A DNA stretch of 57,794 bases, counting the filler, from Sphacelaria rigidula (lineage: Eukaryota): the NCBI GenBank assembly GCA_964200075.2. It is 6 parts of 6 records of this genome, joined end to end, with 100 filler letters (N's around TTAATTAATTAA, not from the genome) between each part and the next. Parts side by side here need not be neighbours in the genome. Positions count along the whole stretch, not along the records: positions 48,247 to 57,794 come from CAXNAA020008254.1; 5 more parts are not named here. One strand, written 5' to 3'. A model generated the notes under the pieces. That model was not told the origin of the DNA. It ran no database searches and was given only the letters and a program-made list of their open reading frames with translations. The position numbers and the translations under genes were made by a program. Positions 9,551 to 54,620 of this stretch are shown piece after piece. Every line of letters begins with the position of its first letter. Position 1 is the stretch's first letter.

Positions 9551-9650
9551 NNNNNNNNNNNNNNNNNNNNNNNNNNNNNNNNNNNNNNNNNNNNTTAATT
9601 AATTAANNNNNNNNNNNNNNNNNNNNNNNNNNNNNNNNNNNNNNNNNNNN
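9551..9650. other. Artificial assembly spacer (N44-TTAATTAATTAA-N44); identical spacers at 19200-19299, 28849-28948, 38498-38597 and 48147-48246
   Basis: Five identical 100-nt spacers containing a six-frame stop linker, spaced exactly 9649 nt apart. Confidence 0.97.
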
Positions 9651-19165: not shown

Positions 19166-19663
19166 TCCGTGTGCAACAAAATCTACGGCGATCTCAACAN
19201 NNNNNNNNNNNNNNNNNNNNNNNNNNNNNNNNNNNNNNNNNNNTTAATTAATTAANNNNNNNNNNNNNNNNNNNNNNNNNNNNNNNNNNNNNNNNNNNNG
19301 TAAGAACAACCAACACTTTCCAGAACATTCCGAGAATCGATCTGGACCGTCGTTCTCAGTACCATTTCTGGAAATCCCCAGTACCGTTTCCCATCGGTCC
19401 ACCACATTTTCCTCCGACAGTCTCGTGATGGTATCCTGGATCTCACATTTACCACGATTGAAATCACACGATTAAGATGCCCCGCCTTGATTTACGTAGC
19501 CTCTTGCGTCCAATATTTGCTGTCGTTGAGCTTCTTGTGCGTAGTCTTCACGCCTACTCGTGATAAACGATATGCGATATACGTGGTAGGTGAGCTGCAA
19601 ATATGTGCACGATTTCATGAAATAACTTTCTTACGCCCGATGCACGCGTCGCCCTTGTTGTTG

Positions 19664-26135: not shown

Positions 26136-29100
26136 TAACCTTCCAAGCGCCAACCATGAGAAGATACCTGACGCATAGACGGTGTTGTATTGTAGGGAAG
26201 AATAGGTGGCCTTGGCAGGCGTGTGCTCACTGGAACACAAATGATTGTTTTACTATTCAAAACCAAGATAAGGTCACAAAAATCAGCATCAAAAGTTACG
26301 CTTCACACTCAAGCACACACCGAAGGGCCCCAAAAAACACACCATACATATAAATGGACTAGTCCAGGGACAAAGTTCTGGTACATTCTAATCGATTTTA
26401 CCCGCACCAATTTTCCCGCAGGTGTATGATGGTTGATTGTACCCTGAATGTGACGGTCAAACAGGGGTACTATGGTCACGGGTAATTGTCGGATATTCCG
26501 GTGCTTTGTTTTACATAAGGGCATGATGAAACTGACAAGTTGGAAGGATGCCAAACCATGGAGTGTGGCTATGATTCGACGTATGAGGAAGCGATTGTGT
26601 GGTGGATTACTAGCCCGAGATGTGGACTGTGGATCAGGCTGAAATGTGGCGCTGTGAATCAACTGGAGTGTGGTCTATCATGTGTTTGAGGTACGTTGGC
26701 TAGTTGTATTTTCGATCATGGGAAGTTATGCTTTTATGGGCTTGATAAGGTTGATACGCAACCCCCTTGCCCCACTCCACCACTCTATCAACTCCACCTA
26801 CTCCACCAACTCCACCATCTCCGCCTTCCTCCACCTTGCTCCCCTCGACTTCAGCTTCTTGCTCCATTTTTCTACTCCTGCTTCCACCGTCATATTACGG
26901 GTTTCAGCAGTTAGTGAGTTTGTTGTGTTGAGCTTCGTGTGTTGATTTCCAGGGTGATTGAGCATATTTGGCGTCGAGCATATCTGTGTATTGGTTTTCT
27001 GGTGTTGAGCCTTCAGTGATCTAATAATATAAAATACAGAACAATTGTGTGGATTTTTCTCCCAGTTTGTTTTTATATACGGACCTGCTGTGCTGGCCGT
27101 GACCAGCTGCACGGCAGAGTTTGTATCGTGGCACCCCAGCCACGAGGTACGAAAGTGCCCCTCTTCGACTTACTTGATGGATAGCTAAAGGTCTGTGTGA
27201 AGCTGCCCATGTGGGAGCTTGGTGGGTTGGCACCATGGTATCTCCTGGCACTCATACTGAGAGACCCCGGCCAGTTCATTAGCTACTCCCTCCATATGAC
27301 AAGTGGCGTCGATAAACGGACCTTGTTCTGCTTGGTTAGGAAATCTTTTTGTTGCTTGGCGTTGTGTTTTGCTGCTCAAGCTGGAGTGAGTAACTCGATT
27401 TTATTTTTCTGCGTTTTTTTTCTTGTATTTAGTGAGGTGCCCCTGGTCTATTCTGATTGTCGTGGGCCTCCGCCCACTCTGGGCTCGGTTGCATTGTACA
27501 ACGGTAGTGAAGACTGCTGTACGTTGCCCTCGCTTCGCGTATTACTGATACGAATCTGCCCCTCCGTTGGTACACTGCTTGTAGCTGCTGAGCGATTTAC
27601 TGTAGCTACCCTTGGGTCCTGTTCCCGCTTGTTTACATCCACGTAAGTGCCATGGTGACGCACTTTGTTGGAACCCGACTACGCGTCGGTCTGGCCGGAA
27701 TTGCGTTCAACGTCCGCCTTGTGCATGTAGCCAACCGTTACTCTGTCTCACTATAGTGTGCTCACTCTGCTTTCGAACAAGGTATCGCACGTGCCACTGT
27801 GCCTCGTGCAAACTGTGTGCCCGCCGACCACTACTACATTGATGGTTGATAGTTGGTTTCAACGGCTCATGCTGTAGTAGCATATGGTTGATTTGTCTTG
27901 TGCCGAATTAAACCGCCCCCCCCCTGTACCTCGGCGAGCACCCCAGATATTTGTAGATGCGCAACCCCCCCCCCCCTCCTCCCCCCCTCCCCCCCGGGCG
28001 CCCTTTTGTGTGCTGCAGTACCCCACCGCGCAGCATTGTTCTGAGATGTGGGAAGCTGAACCGTCAGTCGTGGAGACTGTAGCTTCCCCCTGGGACAGCA
28101 CACGCATGTAACACCGGACGTCGCGTTGTTGACGTTGGCACAATTGATTCCAGTCTACCGTGTTTGATTTCCGCCATTCTGGGACAACGCCGCCTGACCG
28201 ATTTCCTTGTCATGGTGTATGTTTTTGTTTTCCGTCCACGGTACGACGAGTTGAGCCTCTTTTCAGGACTCGCCTGATAATTGACGAATTGTGGTTTCAG
28301 CGACAAAAGTTGCCTTCGGATGGAAGCCCACGAGTTTTGCGTGACCACCCCCTCGATGTTTGCTCACATCACTTCAGTCAGGCCTGATTGACCTTTTCCT
28401 GTATTTACAGATGTCTCCCGTCGGGAGTACTGTGAGTTTAGCGACAAAATTGTGCCTATTTGTAGTATCAGATGGTCCCCGCCCCTTGTCGAGGAAGGAG
28501 AAATGGCCCCGTAACCGCGCAGGGTTTTCTAGCACACCACGTCCCCCCCTTATCAGTGCAAAGTATAATCTTTTGCTGTACTGTGGAAATAATACTCGGG
28601 CTCGAACATTTTGCCTTGTAGAAGAGACGCCTTTGGACACAGCCCACGTGCCCGCTCCATATGCCGCTGCCCTGGCTGCTTCCCAGCACCCCCCCGATCT
28701 GGTCAGATATCAGATCGTAGCCCCCCAACACTGGTTGTATCGTAGGCCTATACTTGAGTCGCTACGACACACCGTCCGCATCCCTCGGCGATGCGGCGAG
28801 CGATGAGCTCACCTTGGTGGATTTCAGAACCCCTCAATCCGATCTGGTNNNNNNNNNNNNNNNNNNNNNNNNNNNNNNNNNNNNNNNNNNNNTTAATTAA
28901 TTAANNNNNNNNNNNNNNNNNNNNNNNNNNNNNNNNNNNNNNNNNNNNTGAGTATTTTACTCGAGTACTCAAAAGTACATACTCTACTCGACCTACCCTT
29001 GGTGGCCTACAAAAGGTAAGCGGTTTCTGGAGGCGAAATGTCCGTTTTCGAGTGGCCATATCTCTAGAGTAACATGTTTTTAATCCTTTTTTTTTCAAGT

Positions 29101-37954: not shown

Positions 37955-38997
37955 CCCCCCAGCACTTCTGGGGATATTACAATTTATTGTTTATCACCCA
38001 GAATTTATATCTGTGTTCGACCTCTGAACATAGATACGGAGCTGTTGCTCAAAACTTGATTCGAATTTTCGTATTTGATATCAGGAACACTCTCAAGCAG
38101 TCCCCCCACCCTACTCCCGTCTCCGTCTGGTCCGGCGAGAACCCGGCGTGCTCCGTCCCGGTTTTGTAGGGGCGGACCCCCGATAGGGTTGGCGTCGGAT
38201 GGCGGTGACGCTATAAAACACGCCACTCATTCCGTAAGCTAGGCAACCAGGTTACCGATTTTTTTGCGCGCTTGCGTTTTTTTGCAGTAATCATGATGGT
38301 AGTCGAGCTAGATCATGTTGTGCGGTGTCGGAGAACCTTAGCTCCGCACAAAGGGCATGATCGTACCACGTGGTATTCACATGGTGAGACACCCATGAGG
38401 TAGTGTATAAGCCATCGCTGTCTCTGGCAGTGGCGATACCAAAAAATAAAGCAACTCATTGTAGGCTGTCGTCCAAATGCAAGATAATCAGTACGCTNNN
38501 NNNNNNNNNNNNNNNNNNNNNNNNNNNNNNNNNNNNNNNNNTTAATTAATTAANNNNNNNNNNNNNNNNNNNNNNNNNNNNNNNNNNNNNNNNNNNNCAA
38601 CCCCGTCCGGGAGGGGAGGGGGGGAAATGGGACCCCCACGAAGGAAACAACCAAAATAGGACCCCCCCCCCCCCCCCCCCACTGGTCAACTCTTTTGGGA
38701 CTGGGCCTCCGGAACGACCGATGAGGCTGGTTAGGAATGATGTGTCTAGCGTATGCACGAAACAGTGGCTTCATGTTACTGAAAATCCGCGTATGTACCC
38801 ACAAGGATATTGAGAAGACCGAAAGTTTCATCCGATCTATGTTCAGGTGCAGGTACAAACTGCAATTCGGGAATTGTGCGCATCAGGTAATGCACAGATG
38901 TATCAAGCAGTATGTGTCGCGGTAGAGAGCTTTCAACAGGATGCGGCGACCGCCGCCCGCCACTTGTGGCTGTGGATGATATTATTGCCCCCATCAC

Positions 38998-47148: not shown

Positions 47149-48246
47149 TTTTTCTTCGCCTCGGGCTCCCAGCCAAAAATGTGCGAAACTCTACCTCTCC
47201 GGTGTATGGCAGTGCTGTGCGAAATACAAGTAGAAATGTTCGTTCTTGTTTTCAAAACCGTCAGAGCCACTGCCAATAAAAGTTATACAAGCGTATAGTT
47301 GTGCACAGAATGAAGAACAGGCGGCTTGGGAGGGGGACCTGGAAATAATGTCAGCGAAGGTATGGATTTCATCACACGTCACGACAGAACCAATCAAATG
47401 AATGTCTGTGCAGCATATATATACATATGTACATGTAACATTTTTAGCATTTTTCACCACTTTTGCCGATTTTTTTCAGGCGACAAGGCGTTTTTTCCCG
47501 CGCTTTCTTTTGCAGCGCACTAAGAAGGCTCAGCGGTACGTTACCGTTCAGGTTCGGGTGTCATCTGGTACCTGTGGCGCGTGTTCTGGCCACCGAAAGT
47601 CACTCAAACTGGCCCTTTTTCGCGGATTGTCAATCCCGCACCACAAAAGCCTTTCAAGATCATGGACAACTTGAAACAGGATCCCGAACCACAGAATCCT
47701 GTGGAAGATCATGGAAACCTTGAAAAATAATTACTTTTGGCGGAGTATTTTTTTCCCCCGTGTTTCTCTTTGTCGCGTTCTCGTTTATTTGGAAGCACGA
47801 ACACACCGGTCATGCCTCCAATGTCACGAGAACATGCGAGCAAAGCAGTTGAAAACAACTGAACATTACCTTGGCCTCAGTCAGCAGCAAACACAAGACA
47901 ATGGGTCGTTGGCGAGTCGAACAAGGCACAGCAGCACGGCAGCACAGGAATGTTTTGCCGCAAAAAACAACCACTCTGTTGAAAAAAAAAAGTCCGGTGA
48001 TGTGTAAGCCACAGTGATGTACAAAGAACACGCCAAGAATGTTCCACGCATTCCAATTTTTCGGGAACTGTCTCCCGCTGTCATGTCTTTGTGGCACGAG
48101 AGCTACTTCGCCCTCTGGCACCTCGGAAATACCACACATGTCCTACNNNNNNNNNNNNNNNNNNNNNNNNNNNNNNNNNNNNNNNNNNNNTTAATTAATT
48201 AANNNNNNNNNNNNNNNNNNNNNNNNNNNNNNNNNNNNNNNNNNNN

Positions 48247-50212: not shown

Positions 50213-51394
50213 CAGAGTACCCGGGAAAACCCCAGAAGGATATGCAGCACAACGTCTACCGCACAAGGCCCACAGACGAAAGTTTGCGAGAGGAAGGGGT
50301 GACCGCACATGCTTTGAAAACGACATGTTGTATGGTACGAATAGACAACATAGAAACACAGGATCCTGGAAATTGGGGTTGAATTTTCAGATGATGCCGA
50401 ACCCACCTTCTGAAAATTCACATTTTCCCCGGAACAGGTTTGCAAAAACAACCTACCGAGGCTTTTATTCGTATGCTGAAACTTCCCCTACTTTATCTCG
50501 TCGCGCATTATTGCTCCGGTGTCTCAAGCCATATGTATCTCCTTTCGTACATTTCAATCGGCTCTCACAAGGTGAAGGGAGGCGGACTAAAGGCCCAATT
50601 GCTGCATTGCAATGTGTCCGGATCGCCAAGAGGCGTAAAATTCGGCAGAACGGATCCTTGGTCCAACGGGGCGTACACAGCTACCTGAATTCCTCATATT
50701 TGTTGTTTTCACCCATGACTCCGAAATTGTGGTGATCGGTTGTATCGCGTGTAGTCGTTGTCGATAGCTACCAGTAGGTGAAGGAATGCAACCACAACGA
50801 AGGATTGGTGCGGATACGAATAGTTTAGTTTCTCGTTTTTTATGCTCACTCGAAAGCCCCATCCTCAATGTTGATGATCGGCTGTTACACGTGGAGGGCG
50901 CTCTACCAACACTCGAAACTAATGTCTTGGAGTTCATGCTTCAGCTCGACATCGGTGTAGCACGAGTGTCGACAACATCGGTGTAGCACGAGGCCCGAAA
51001 GAGCTCATATGTGCCGGGAAACAATCGCAAGAAGTGATCATATTTTCAAGGAGTAGCTTTCACAACAAGACAAGCCACTGCCAGCCCAAATAGCCCAACG
51101 ACATTAAACAGACACCGATCGTGTGCTTCATTCGCGCGCTCTACGATGAACGATGCTACGGTAGGGGTGCACTTTTTTCGCGAAATCATGTCTAATTCAG
51201 GGGCTCCTAACAACTCTAGATGCACAAAAATCTGTGTCAGGGCACCCTCGTTTACAAATTCATTCGGAATATCCCCAGCACATTGGAGTAGTAATCCTGG
51301 CGTACTTTCACATATTTTCATAGGTCGCGTTTTGCATGAGATGAAGGGAACCTAACAATTCTAACTTCAGAAAATATTTGTGCATCCCTACCGT

Positions 51395-54300
51395 AGCATC
51401 ACTCACCCCTGCCATTCGATACCGAACGCCTTCATGCCTTCCGCAAGGCAGCGGATCCAGCCCTTGTGCCTGCCGTGAACCTCTCTTTTTTGCCCCTTCA
51501 CGGCTACAATTTCACCGAACATGACGTGTTTCGGTATCCGTCCGGGTGACATGCGCGTGACGAAACCGGTAAAATGGAGTCTCCTCTTCCTCACCGTCGT
51601 CTCGATGCTTTCGCACCCTGTCCTCGCGAGGGTCTCTCGGTGTGACAAAACGTGGTCTGTGCGATTGCGCTTGTGCCATCCAAGACAGCGCCTGAGCAAC
51701 GCATGGTGGGCCGTGCGCAGTGTACTGTAGTGACCGCTGAGAGGGGTCCATGTGACGCACCCGTACAGGAGTGCTTCGACAGCCTCGGCTTTGATCATGC
51801 GGACCTTGAGGTGGACGGCCGCGTTCGGTCGATTGTACACTTGGACTTTGTACTTGTGGTAGCTCAACCATGCCCCTCGTACGCGCTTGTTGATTTCCAC
51901 CGAGAGGTCGCCACTCTCCGTAATCGACCCCCCCAGGTAAACAAAGTTGTCTGTTTGTTCGTATACCTGACCAGCCGCATTGATGTCGAGGTGCCCCGCC
52001 TGTGAGTGCAGTCGCATGGTCTTCGTCTTTGCTTCCGACGCGGTCAACCCGAACTCTCCGCAGATCGTCACAATCAAAGTCATCATCTTCTCGAGGCTCG
52101 ATGATGTATGTCCGCGAGACGATGCAGGCGTCATCGGCGTACAGCATACTCCATAGAGACCGTTCCTCTTCCGCCGCTATTGCTGTGGCCACATCTGGCT
52201 CGACCCATGCCATAGCACATTCCTGGTGGAAATCTCCCTTTTCGCGCTTCCGGGCTCGCACCAGGTCCCCCGAGATGTCAGGATGATCGCGGAAGACTGC
52301 CAGGGCCACCGTGAGTACTGCCGTAAAGAAGATGTTGAACAGTAGTGCCATGTTGGAGGTTCTGATCGATGTCGAACCATTCCGAGAATTTCCCCGCCGT
52401 TCGTGCGCACCCGAGCTTGCATGCCATCGTGGAATTGGCGGATGATCGAGAGCATGATGGGTGGAACGCCATAGCGTTGAGGCGGAGCGACTTGGTGTTG
52501 AGGAGGGTGTGAAACCACTGTACCCACCGCGGGCGGATGAGCTTCACGTCTCTGAGCAGTTGACCCTTGTCGTCGCGGATGTATTGCTGCTGTGAGCCAC
52601 ATGGTTTTCTCCCTTCGACATCGATTCCCTTCAGGTACCGGTAGAAACCGCGTTGGTCACCTCTCGCGATGTGCGCTTCAAGTCGGCTGCCGTAGGTCTC
52701 GAAGAATCTCTCCTCCGCATGTGCTCTAACATGACGAAGTTCCTTGTTGGCCTTCTTCAAAACTCTCTTGAGGTTGGTGTCAGTGGGCGTTGACATCGAT
52801 GCCCTCCGTGCTTCTTCCCTCGCCATCCATGCAGCTTGGATCTTTGCCTTGGTCTCGGCACTCGCGCATCAGCCGTGGGAGCCTCGTTGGTTTCTCTCGT
52901 GGGGCGCGGTGTCTACTGCGGCGGATATCAGCATCTTGGTGAGGGCTGCAGCCATGTCAGCGGCGGTAGCATCTATGGGAAAGGGGTCGAGAGGGAAGGC
53001 CGTTTGCAACGTCATTGCTCTCAACGTCGGGTCAGCCATCAGCCTTTCAAAATCGGCCGTTCTGCGTCTGGATGCATATTTCCGCAACTTGCGATTGGGC
53101 GCAAAGCGACCACGGAGCCGGACCTTTGCAGCTACGAGGTTATGGTCAGACTCGCATTTTCCGGGTGGTGGGCGGCGGACGGAAATGTTGCGTACGAGTT
53201 TTCGGTCCGTCTGTCTTGTGAGGATGAAGTTAAGGCGATAGCATCCCTTCCCGGCGTTGGGGCTTTGGAGAGTGTACGAGATGCCCCGCTCGGGTGTTCT
53301 GAAGAACGTATTTAGCACAGCAAGGCGTTGTTCCTCTGCAAAGGCCAGTAGCCTGCCACCGTTTTTGTTCAGTACGTCCGGCCTGTATTTGCCGAGTACC
53401 TTGCTATCATTCTCTCAATCCCCCTCCCCTCGTTTTCCAGTGCGGGCGTTGGCATCCATCATGACGAATATGTGTTCCTTGCCAGGTACTTGTGAGACGG
53501 TATCGGATACGTCATCCCAAAAGTTGTTTTTGCCGCGCAGCGGAGCGGTCTCCGGCGGGGCATACCCAACTACAATTGATACTGCGTCGGATTTGCCGTG
53601 TAGTTCAAGCTCCACCTTCATAAGTCGAGCACTGAGGTACTCGACTGTGGCACCTTTTCCTCCCATCTCCTCCAGGATTGACTCCTTGATAGCGATCCCT
53701 ACCCCATGTTGTCCTGCCCTTCCCTCAGCCCCGCTTGTATCACCAGAACAAAATACCGTAAATCCCGCCGCAGTGAACACCGACTGACCGTCTCTCCTAG
53801 TTTCTTGTAAGCCTACGATATCGCATCCTAGATACTGACAAGGTTTCAGGATAATCTCACTGTGGCCAATGCCGTTCACACCTCTGAAAGCGAGCGTGCG
53901 AACAGTGTAGGTGCCGACAGTAAGCTCGCCGATCCTGGCCCTCGCCCTCGCAGTCGTTTTCCTCTTGTCGGCAGCCCTCCGATCTGCTCGTCTTTTATGC
54001 CTCTTTTTACTTGCGGCGTGTTTTATCTTCTTCTCCGTCCCTTTACATACAAGTATATATTTCTGTTCCGAAATGGACACTGCTCCGTGCGTGCTTGTTA
54101 TCAGACATGATTTCGGGGGCAGCAGTCTCGACATGCCTCGACCGGTTCCACCACCGCATCGTTTCTTGTGCTTACACACGCGTAGATACCTAGCAACTCT
54201 ACTCTCCTTGCTACGTTTCTCACGCTTTCGGCGACGGTTACCTGGTGTCGCTGCCGCGGGCCATGTAGCCGCGGCAACTTTTGCCGTTGGGAAAAACTCC

Positions 54301-54620
54301 GTCGGAAAAAATTCCGCCGCATCAGGATTTAGTGCCGTCATCATCGTGGAGCGTAAGCAGCAGGTAGGGCAGCAAGACGGTTGCTACGCTATTTCTGCTG
54401 TTGCTGTTGTTACTACTGCTGTCGACGAGGATGTCTTTTCTACACCTCAGGTGTGTGCGTGCAGGTTCGCAGTTCACACACCCGCCCCAGGCCGGGCGGC
54501 CCGGGGAGGGAAGAAAAAAGACACAGTATTCCAATCCGAGACTCCATTGTGGGGCAAAAATCAAGCGTGCGCGTTTACCCACATGTGACTCCTGCAGCAG
54601 GACTCACGAGCGCGCTTTGA
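51395..54620 (-). mobile_element. RTE-like LINE (single APE-RT ORF plus 5' UTR), inactive, internally deleted and 3'-truncated
   Basis: APE motifs (TYTVRTL, DIVGLQETR, MDANAR, LNTFF, SDHNLV) and RT motifs ([40 protein letters not shown]). The outer boundaries are approximate. Confidence 0.9.
51403..54344 (-). pseudogene. LINE ORF with an N-terminal PAM2-like motif, basic linker, APE endonuclease and reverse transcriptase; disrupted
   Basis: ORF pieces 54344-53415, 53318-52869, 52826-~52470, ~52470-52350, 52351-~52110 and 52134-51403. In-frame TGA at 53415 and 52869, and a deletion of the early RT domains near 52470. Confidence 0.88.

Follow-up and report, generated by a model that had tools for sequence, protein, structure and literature searches.

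How the protein of a long interspersed nuclear element (LINE) chooses its own mRNA, known as cis-preference, is a long-standing question. Here, we describe a LINE of Sphacelaria rigidula that carries PAM2, a motif of cellular ligands of the poly(A)-binding protein (PABP), at the N-terminus of its single open reading frame (ORF); it lies in a 57,794-nt stretch of DNA from assembly GCA_964200075.2 (hereafter the window, spacers included). The closest described system is human L1, in which a segment of ORF2p termed PIE (residues 272-297) is predicted to bind RRM1 of PABPC1 (Ghanim et al. 2025, PMC7617806). This contact has been proposed to form co-translationally, to set cis-preference and to protect the tail (PMC7617806), a proposal also cited in a coronavirus preprint (10.1101/2025.10.09.680815), and the main text of PMC7617806 mentions neither PAM2 nor MLLE, the PABP domain that binds PAM2. 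Like PIE, the algal motif is a LINE segment near the N-terminus for which co-translational PABP binding, cis-preference and tail protection may be proposed. In contrast to PIE, which lies behind the endonuclease and contacts RRM1, algal PAM2 precedes the endonuclease and is predicted to bind the C-terminal MLLE domain; likewise, L1 has an ORF1 and a poly(A) tail, whereas a single ORF and a microsatellite tail characterise the algal elements.

PAM2 and its Trp form, PAM2w, are known from the cellular ligands Paip1, Paip2, eRF3, ataxin-2 and LARP4/4B (PF07145; PMC7356810, PMC6486636), with which the algal motif shares the published consensus LNxxAxEFxP (PMC7356810). LARP4/4B are alike also in carrying the motif N-terminally within a disordered region and in the Trp variant (PMC7356810, PMC6486636), which recurs in the algal lineages D/D'. 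Unlike these cellular proteins, the algal carrier is a retrotransposon polyprotein. In the literature searched, with subscription journals and Repbase notes outside its coverage, no paper describing PAM2 in a retrotransposon was found. Thus, what is known is PABP tethering as a proposed basis for LINE cis-preference, and what is new is a PAM2 motif under selection, probably acting via MLLE.

The window consists of contigs joined by N spacers (9551-9650, 19200-19299, 28849-28948, 38498-38597 and 48147-48246), and the PAM2-bearing copy, which belongs to a group of copies here referred to as family A, sits in the last contig (G000:C8254). The features at its N-terminus are as follows.

54339..54344, minus strand: start codons ATG ATG, the element's first AUG, with a purine at -3
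54303..54338, minus strand: PAM2 TALNPDAAEFFP, residues 3-14, core L5 N6 P7 A9 F12 P14 (consensus match; PF07145)
54285..54314, minus strand: 15-bp direct repeat, imperfect with 12 of 15 bases matching, by which EFFPT is encoded twice
53931..54074, minus strand: basic K/R-rich tract, residues 91-138, one long predicted helix (AlphaFold2), present in all aligned lineages

The minus strand from 54344 translates as MMTALNPDAAEFFPTEFFPTAK, in which LNPDAAEFFP (L5-P14, 54332-54303) matches LNxxAxEFxP exactly, starting at residue 5 and with its Leu codon 12 nt downstream of the first AUG. A sequence-only reading of the window had placed an exact PAM2 match at this very N-terminus, with K/R-rich patches between it and the endonuclease, and both hold: the basic tract spans residues 91-138 and the endonuclease begins at about residues 140-142, after a 139-aa extension. 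The leader of this copy is devoid of ATG, and PAM2 therefore follows the first AUG. Among the 27 family A copies with a full leader, 18 have no ATG in it, the remainder showing scattered private ATGs, and 21 keep the in-frame stop at 54386-54384. Shuffling the 139-aa extension 200,000 times produced the pattern L[NSD][PA]xAxx[FW]xP in 12 cases, and its single site among the 115,584 six-frame residues of the window is this motif. When PF07145 was searched against the genome, the window motif scored 19.1 bits, or 22.4 with its in-frame neighbours, and some family A and B copies reach 20.0-22.8 bits. AlphaFold2 gives pLDDT (predicted local distance difference test) values of 34-37 over residues 1-30 and below 50 over residues 1-40, most of residues 1-85 being modelled with low confidence, and PAM2 is predicted to lie in a disordered, accessible region. 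The basic helix block behind it is modelled at pLDDT 83-91 (residues 91-130) and likely binds RNA or serves as a nuclear import signal. A phmmer search of the PDB with a 25-residue peptide gave no match, the query being too short to inform. Besides PAM2, short blocks of the extension, three in number (H/NRRGKR, VSKxxIR and GRRGxGxLxP; alignment A2 columns 58-105), are retained in many lineages.

Of the claimed 15-bp duplication, the double coding of EFFPT stands, and the repeat itself is imperfect, all three base differences being synonymous. The likeness drawn to the tandem motifs of eRF3 fails because the second EFFPT has no upstream anchors, that is, no L, N or A in register; in the sister lineage P0005/P0060 the second unit reads DFFLT. 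In contrast to eRF3, where overlapping motifs let one Phe anchor the next motif, the EFFPT repeat shows no such overlap, and the true tandem, which is found in family B, is made of separate motifs. [ED]FF also occurs in the sister lineages P0005, P0001 and P0056; it is kept in lineages A and I and may add contacts.

PAM2 is found in six of the nine lineages with a known N-terminus (A, B, D/D', E, F and H). Lineages E, F and D were taken from public proteins and H is the intact relative L111; lineages K and M of a first tree were left out of the nine because their starts are uncertain.

Lineage A: LNPDAAEFFP
Lineage B: two motifs, 15 residues apart
Lineage D/D': Trp variant, LNPKAPAW and LNAKAPVW
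Lineage E: LNPGAVEFFP
Lineage F: LNPQVRPFVP
Lineage H (L111): LNPDAEVFVP
Lineage C: degenerate, MxPNxAKSFP
Lineage I (P0001, P0056): no canonical motif
Lineage J: no motif

Wherever present, the motif begins at most 13 residues from the N-terminus. The earlier suggestion was to compare its conservation with that of the flanking linker. With family A as the reference, 5-6 of the 6 core residues are retained in lineages H, E, F, B/G and D, as against only 18-32 of the 125 other extension residues (14-26% identity). Of 30 family A copies, 26-30 carry each of the core residues (27 of 27 for P14), and the motif is ancestral in this family. The F-to-W change of D/D' is one that MLLE tolerates in LARP4/4B (PMC7356810). 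A motif-blind genome search by endonuclease, in which 70 of 150 matches were examined, yielded clusters for B (31 loci), D' (24), J (13) and A (1) and one B-like locus, and among metagenome loci the motif is found in 1 of 42 (L111), most of the 42 missing the N-terminus. In an endonuclease tree of 22 rows, from which 15 short, frameshifted or redundant rows had been dropped, the motif-less lineages fall into a supported clade with A and F, and three changes are needed to account for the motif. Grouping the motif-less lineages together was rejected (p-AU 0.02), with the group chosen after the first tree had been seen and the root set by one distant row. An ancestral motif followed by repeated decay is the simplest reading.

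Selection on the motif codons was assessed from variants shared by several copies, which mostly reflect change in active lineages, whereas single-copy variants mostly reflect decay after insertion. In a motif-blind set of copies (30 A, with 15 B and 16 D' copies that span the motif), with a shared variant defined as one in at least 3 copies, silent and replacing variants number 10:0 at core codons (24 codons), 4:12 at variable motif codons (23 codons), 68:134 elsewhere in the extension (329 codons) and 151:153 in the endonuclease. Core codons thus differ from variable motif codons (Fisher P 2e-4) and from the rest of the extension (P 3e-5), the core positions following the consensus, yet having been fixed after the residue counts of A and B were seen. 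The published L, N, A and F/W positions alone give 8:0 versus 6:12 (P 0.002), and single-copy changes at core codons are neutral (13:41). A larger set (30 A, 40 B and 38 D') gives 13:3 for the core, 5:14 for the variable codons and 50:107 for the extension (P 0.002 and 2e-4, respectively). The motif is conserved above its flanks and kept under selection across diverged lineages.

The likely partner was sought in the host genome, where a PABP gene is found on contig C725, which ends before the MLLE exon. A complete MLLE domain with the signature KITGMLLE is present in P0269, a brown-algal PABP that shares 96% identity with an exon of the host. At the 12 pocket residues listed in PMC7356810, with numbering counted from the signature motif, P0269 shows 9 residues identical to human, 2 conservative replacements and 1 change, and the MLLE pocket is judged from this alignment to be canonical and intact in a related brown-algal PABP. 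A predicted complex of the P0269 MLLE domain with residues 1-34 scored 0.34, 0.32 and 0.33 against a mark of 0.34, with controls at 0.01, 0.03 and 0.00, and was not used either way. The PAM2 peptide would probably bind MLLE.

Many of the PF07145 matches in the genome belong to one Ty3/Gypsy family, with confirmed reverse transcriptase, RNase H and integrase, the Gag of which begins MSGNPLNPQAQPFYP.

PAM2-bearing Gypsy loci: L061-L064, L094-L100 and L243-L272 (e.g. C13376:5354 and C4812:7413 of G000)

This Gag is Q/P-rich, with the PAM2 LNPQAQPFYP at residue 6 and a CCCH-like finger at its end. When loci were selected by the Gag core, the motif was found in 20 of 30 (two of which are one contig), and in none of 20 loci of distant Gag relatives; by this distribution the Gypsy PAM2 looks like an independent gain. 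Such independent use suggests that transposons have repeatedly come to mimic PAM2 ligands of the host. PF07145 also matches outside the repeat families seen, at L101 (G000:C9562:5039-5068, plus strand) and L102 (G000:C5534:2593-2622, minus strand), which are candidate host PAM2 proteins.

The proposal that PAM2 substitutes for an ORF1 protein is not supported, because lineages without a canonical motif show no ORF1 either and the Gypsy Gag carries the motif as well. The intact relatives L111, P0001 and P0056 combine PF03372 (strong) and PF00078 in a single ORF without ORF1. Family J has a leader of ~440 nt without a long ORF, and the P0001 contig (4181 nt, ORF of 1236 aa) leaves little room for ORF1, although it may be incomplete.

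From these findings we infer MLLE binding, binding to the element's own mRNA during translation and an effect on ribonucleoprotein (RNP) assembly, the disorder of the region being predicted. In the proposed model, to which we give a probability of roughly 55%, the nascent protein would be tethered through PAM2 and MLLE to PABP on its own mRNA. Once the first few dozen codons have been translated, the PAM2 peptide would emerge from the ribosome and dock on the MLLE domain of a PABP bound to the same mRNA; docking would hold the growing protein at the mRNA 3' end, where reverse transcription begins, and could thereby favour RNP assembly in cis and shield the poly(A) tail. Several observations weigh against this model. 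On the 321-aa frame, PF07145 scores 15.7 bits (E 0.012), below its gathering cut-off of 20. In the larger copy set, three shared core replacements do occur (P11 of B, mostly to Ala; L24 of the second B motif, mostly to Ser; P12 of D' to Ser), and family A alone gives 1:0 versus 1:3, the signal coming mainly from B and D'. The intact ORFs P0001 and P0056 of lineage I have no canonical motif, C is degenerate and J has none, so PAM2 is not essential. Searches with PF00658, a back-translated signature pattern and the P0269 domain did not recover the MLLE exon of the host, a result that says nothing on its absence since the gene is cut by the contig end. Finally, L067, L080 and L035 of family A end in (AATC)n and L111 in (AATAC)n, with no poly(A). 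Because copies end in this way, a copied poly(A) tail is not where reverse transcription starts, in contrast to L1, and a non-autonomous Ectocarpus element that has only the final 12 bp and (CAA)n in common with RTE-1/2 (PMC12477816 supplement) points to the 3'-end sequence as the template signal. Template choice is thus likely made mainly by the 3'-end sequence, and PAM2 is an accessory and not a requirement.

The same peptide could instead bind MLLE and act in trans, by targeting the protein or RNP to PABP-rich granules or by competing with host PAM2 proteins such as eRF3 and deadenylase adaptors, with the outcome that the stability or translation of element RNA is raised and the template is not chosen. 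This is a possibility we regard as unlikely, yet the foremost of the rivals. It would fit the presence of the motif on a Gypsy Gag, which needs no cis-preference of the target-primed reverse transcription type, the tandem motifs of family B, which would increase avidity, the microsatellite 3' ends and the trans-mobilised partners in Ectocarpus (PMC12477816 supplement); on the other hand, a motif start within 13 residues of the N-terminus in all carrying lineages is the position expected for co-translational capture. The present data do not directly separate cis from trans. Selection for another partner, either oligo(A) RNA, as bound by the PAM2w region of LARP4A, or the MLLE domain of a non-PABP protein, appears more unlikely still. 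Binding of LARP4A PAM2w to oligo(A) and to MLLE is mutually exclusive (PMC6486636), the Trp form is found in D/D' and the extension is strongly basic, all of which would suit RNA as a partner, but W-to-F in LARP4A weakens RNA binding and not MLLE binding (PMC6486636), and Phe is the residue in five of the six motif-bearing lineages. That the motif is a chance match or a neutral relic passed on by descent is the least probable reading, and one we consider very improbable. The motif is lost or degenerate in three of nine lineages, the own-genome copies examined are all decayed and the Pfam score lies below the cut-off; against this stand the rarity of the pattern in shuffles, a core kept while its flanks drop to 14-26% identity, the silent excess among shared core variants in both copy sets, and the B duplication and D/D' F-to-W change, both of which keep the binding pattern. 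Core-versus-flank conservation together with both selection sets largely refutes it.

If nascent-protein tethering holds, a well-understood motif of ten residues is a far simpler PABP handle than the predicted ORF2p-PABPC1 contact, and the model can be tested by a one-residue mutation of known structural meaning. Nature also provides lineages with a single motif, a tandem, a Trp variant or no motif, and intact ORFs with (L111) and without it (P0001 and P0056).

A further feature of these families is the recurrence of deleted copies, in which the first ~450-540 nt are joined at the basic tract to a variable 3' piece. Copies whose 5' end is intact break by preference at the basic tract or shortly ahead of it. 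The 30 family A copies show 10 breaks, of which 9 fall in codons 91-121 and five lie within 6 nt, although the choice of family A loci disfavoured early breaks.

Family A break cluster: window 54065-54070, some 275-280 nt downstream of the ATG, in L005, L007, L012, L015 and L029; further breaks in L011, L016, L025 and L028

In family B, 4 of 12 breaks lie at codons 93-117 (L294, L316, L318 and L319), and in D' six lie at codons 57-84 (L328, L340, L341, L344, L346 and L351), two more at this place being contig ends. In 6 of the 9 A copies and 4 of the 4 B copies, element sequence picks up again further downstream, often within the 3' untranslated region. As to the cause, template jumps at purine-rich sequence or cleavage at stalled ribosomes followed by ligation are speculative options. 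A wider reading, which we offer tentatively and as doubtful in its combination, would join three parts: retrotransposons would have at least three separate PABP handles (human L1 PIE on RRM1, the ancestral PAM2 of brown-algal RTE LINEs on MLLE and the Gypsy Gag PAM2), the LINE PAM2 would be a cis-preference device, its peptide linking the translating ribosome to the RNA 3' end in a loop, and the deleted copies would be footprints of the co-translational complex.

The copy in the window is itself dead, so that the endonuclease-reverse transcriptase ORF of the sequence-only reading is not intact here: it carries premature stops (53417-53415 and 52871-52869), frameshifts and a deletion of ~560 bp (52476-52478), and its 3' part beyond 51404 is lost. 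Two blocks, 54516-52476 and 52478-51404, align with longer copies. Contigs from 4 of 8 listed sequencing runs, two of them only presumed to be RNA, gave no evidence of expression. Its remaining features are as follows.

51404..54516, minus strand: family A single-ORF RTE-type LINE, decayed, with intact 5' end, internal deletion and lost 3' end
54345..54516, minus strand: 5' leader of 172 nt without ATG, with two GC-rich hairpins (54440-54516) and an in-frame stop (54386-54384)
53418..53927, minus strand: apurinic-type endonuclease, N-terminal part to the first premature stop (weak PF03372 match; folded in the AlphaFold2 model)
51404..52478, minus strand: reverse transcriptase remnant, frameshifted and partly deleted, with YADD at 52141-52130 (translation; tblastn to intact L111, row L093)

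The 5' boundary lies at 54509-54522 for most of the 30 aligned family A copies, which are the best 30 of 43 matches in a genome search with the 5' region. The family A leader folds with a z score of -3.45, equal stability being reached in 0 of 200 shuffles. Rfam, searched with the leader and five relatives, returned no family at a useful score, and an HDV-like (hepatitis delta virus-like) 5' ribozyme is therefore unsupported. GC-rich 5' hairpins of differing sequence are also present in families B, D' and J (by eye) and at L111:160-260 (z -1.53).

By domain order and 3' end, and not by reverse transcriptase phylogeny, the element fits the RTE type as described for Ectocarpus; our trees are of the endonuclease with unnamed outgroups. 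Brown algae are the source of the named relatives of both the element and a host PABP exon, from which the host is taken to be one as well. Described brown-algal families are RTE-1_Ec32 and RTE-2_Ec32 of Ectocarpus (PMC12477816) and RTE-1 to RTE-3 of Saccharina (PMC4421812), all of which likewise have a single endonuclease-reverse transcriptase ORF and a short tandem-repeat 3' end. L111, with one ORF of 1244 aa encoding endonuclease and reverse transcriptase, is 4579 bp long and RTE-1_Ec32 is 4584 bp (PMC12477816), a likeness by description and not by sequence. At E values up to 1, Pfam matched no C-terminal zinc finger or RNase H in L111, P0001 or P0056; no relatives were found among viral contigs, and the ESM Atlas gave unnamed endonuclease-fragment clusters only. 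Other Gypsy Gag families of this genome carry long N-terminal Arg-Ser dipeptide regions, resembling SR splicing proteins.

Arg-Ser Gag loci: L273-L275, L278, L281, L283, L285, L286 and L288-L292

Next to the LINE in the window, a repeat of ~250 bp (51153-51404) truncates the 3' end of the copy, with a contig depth far above that of the LINE.

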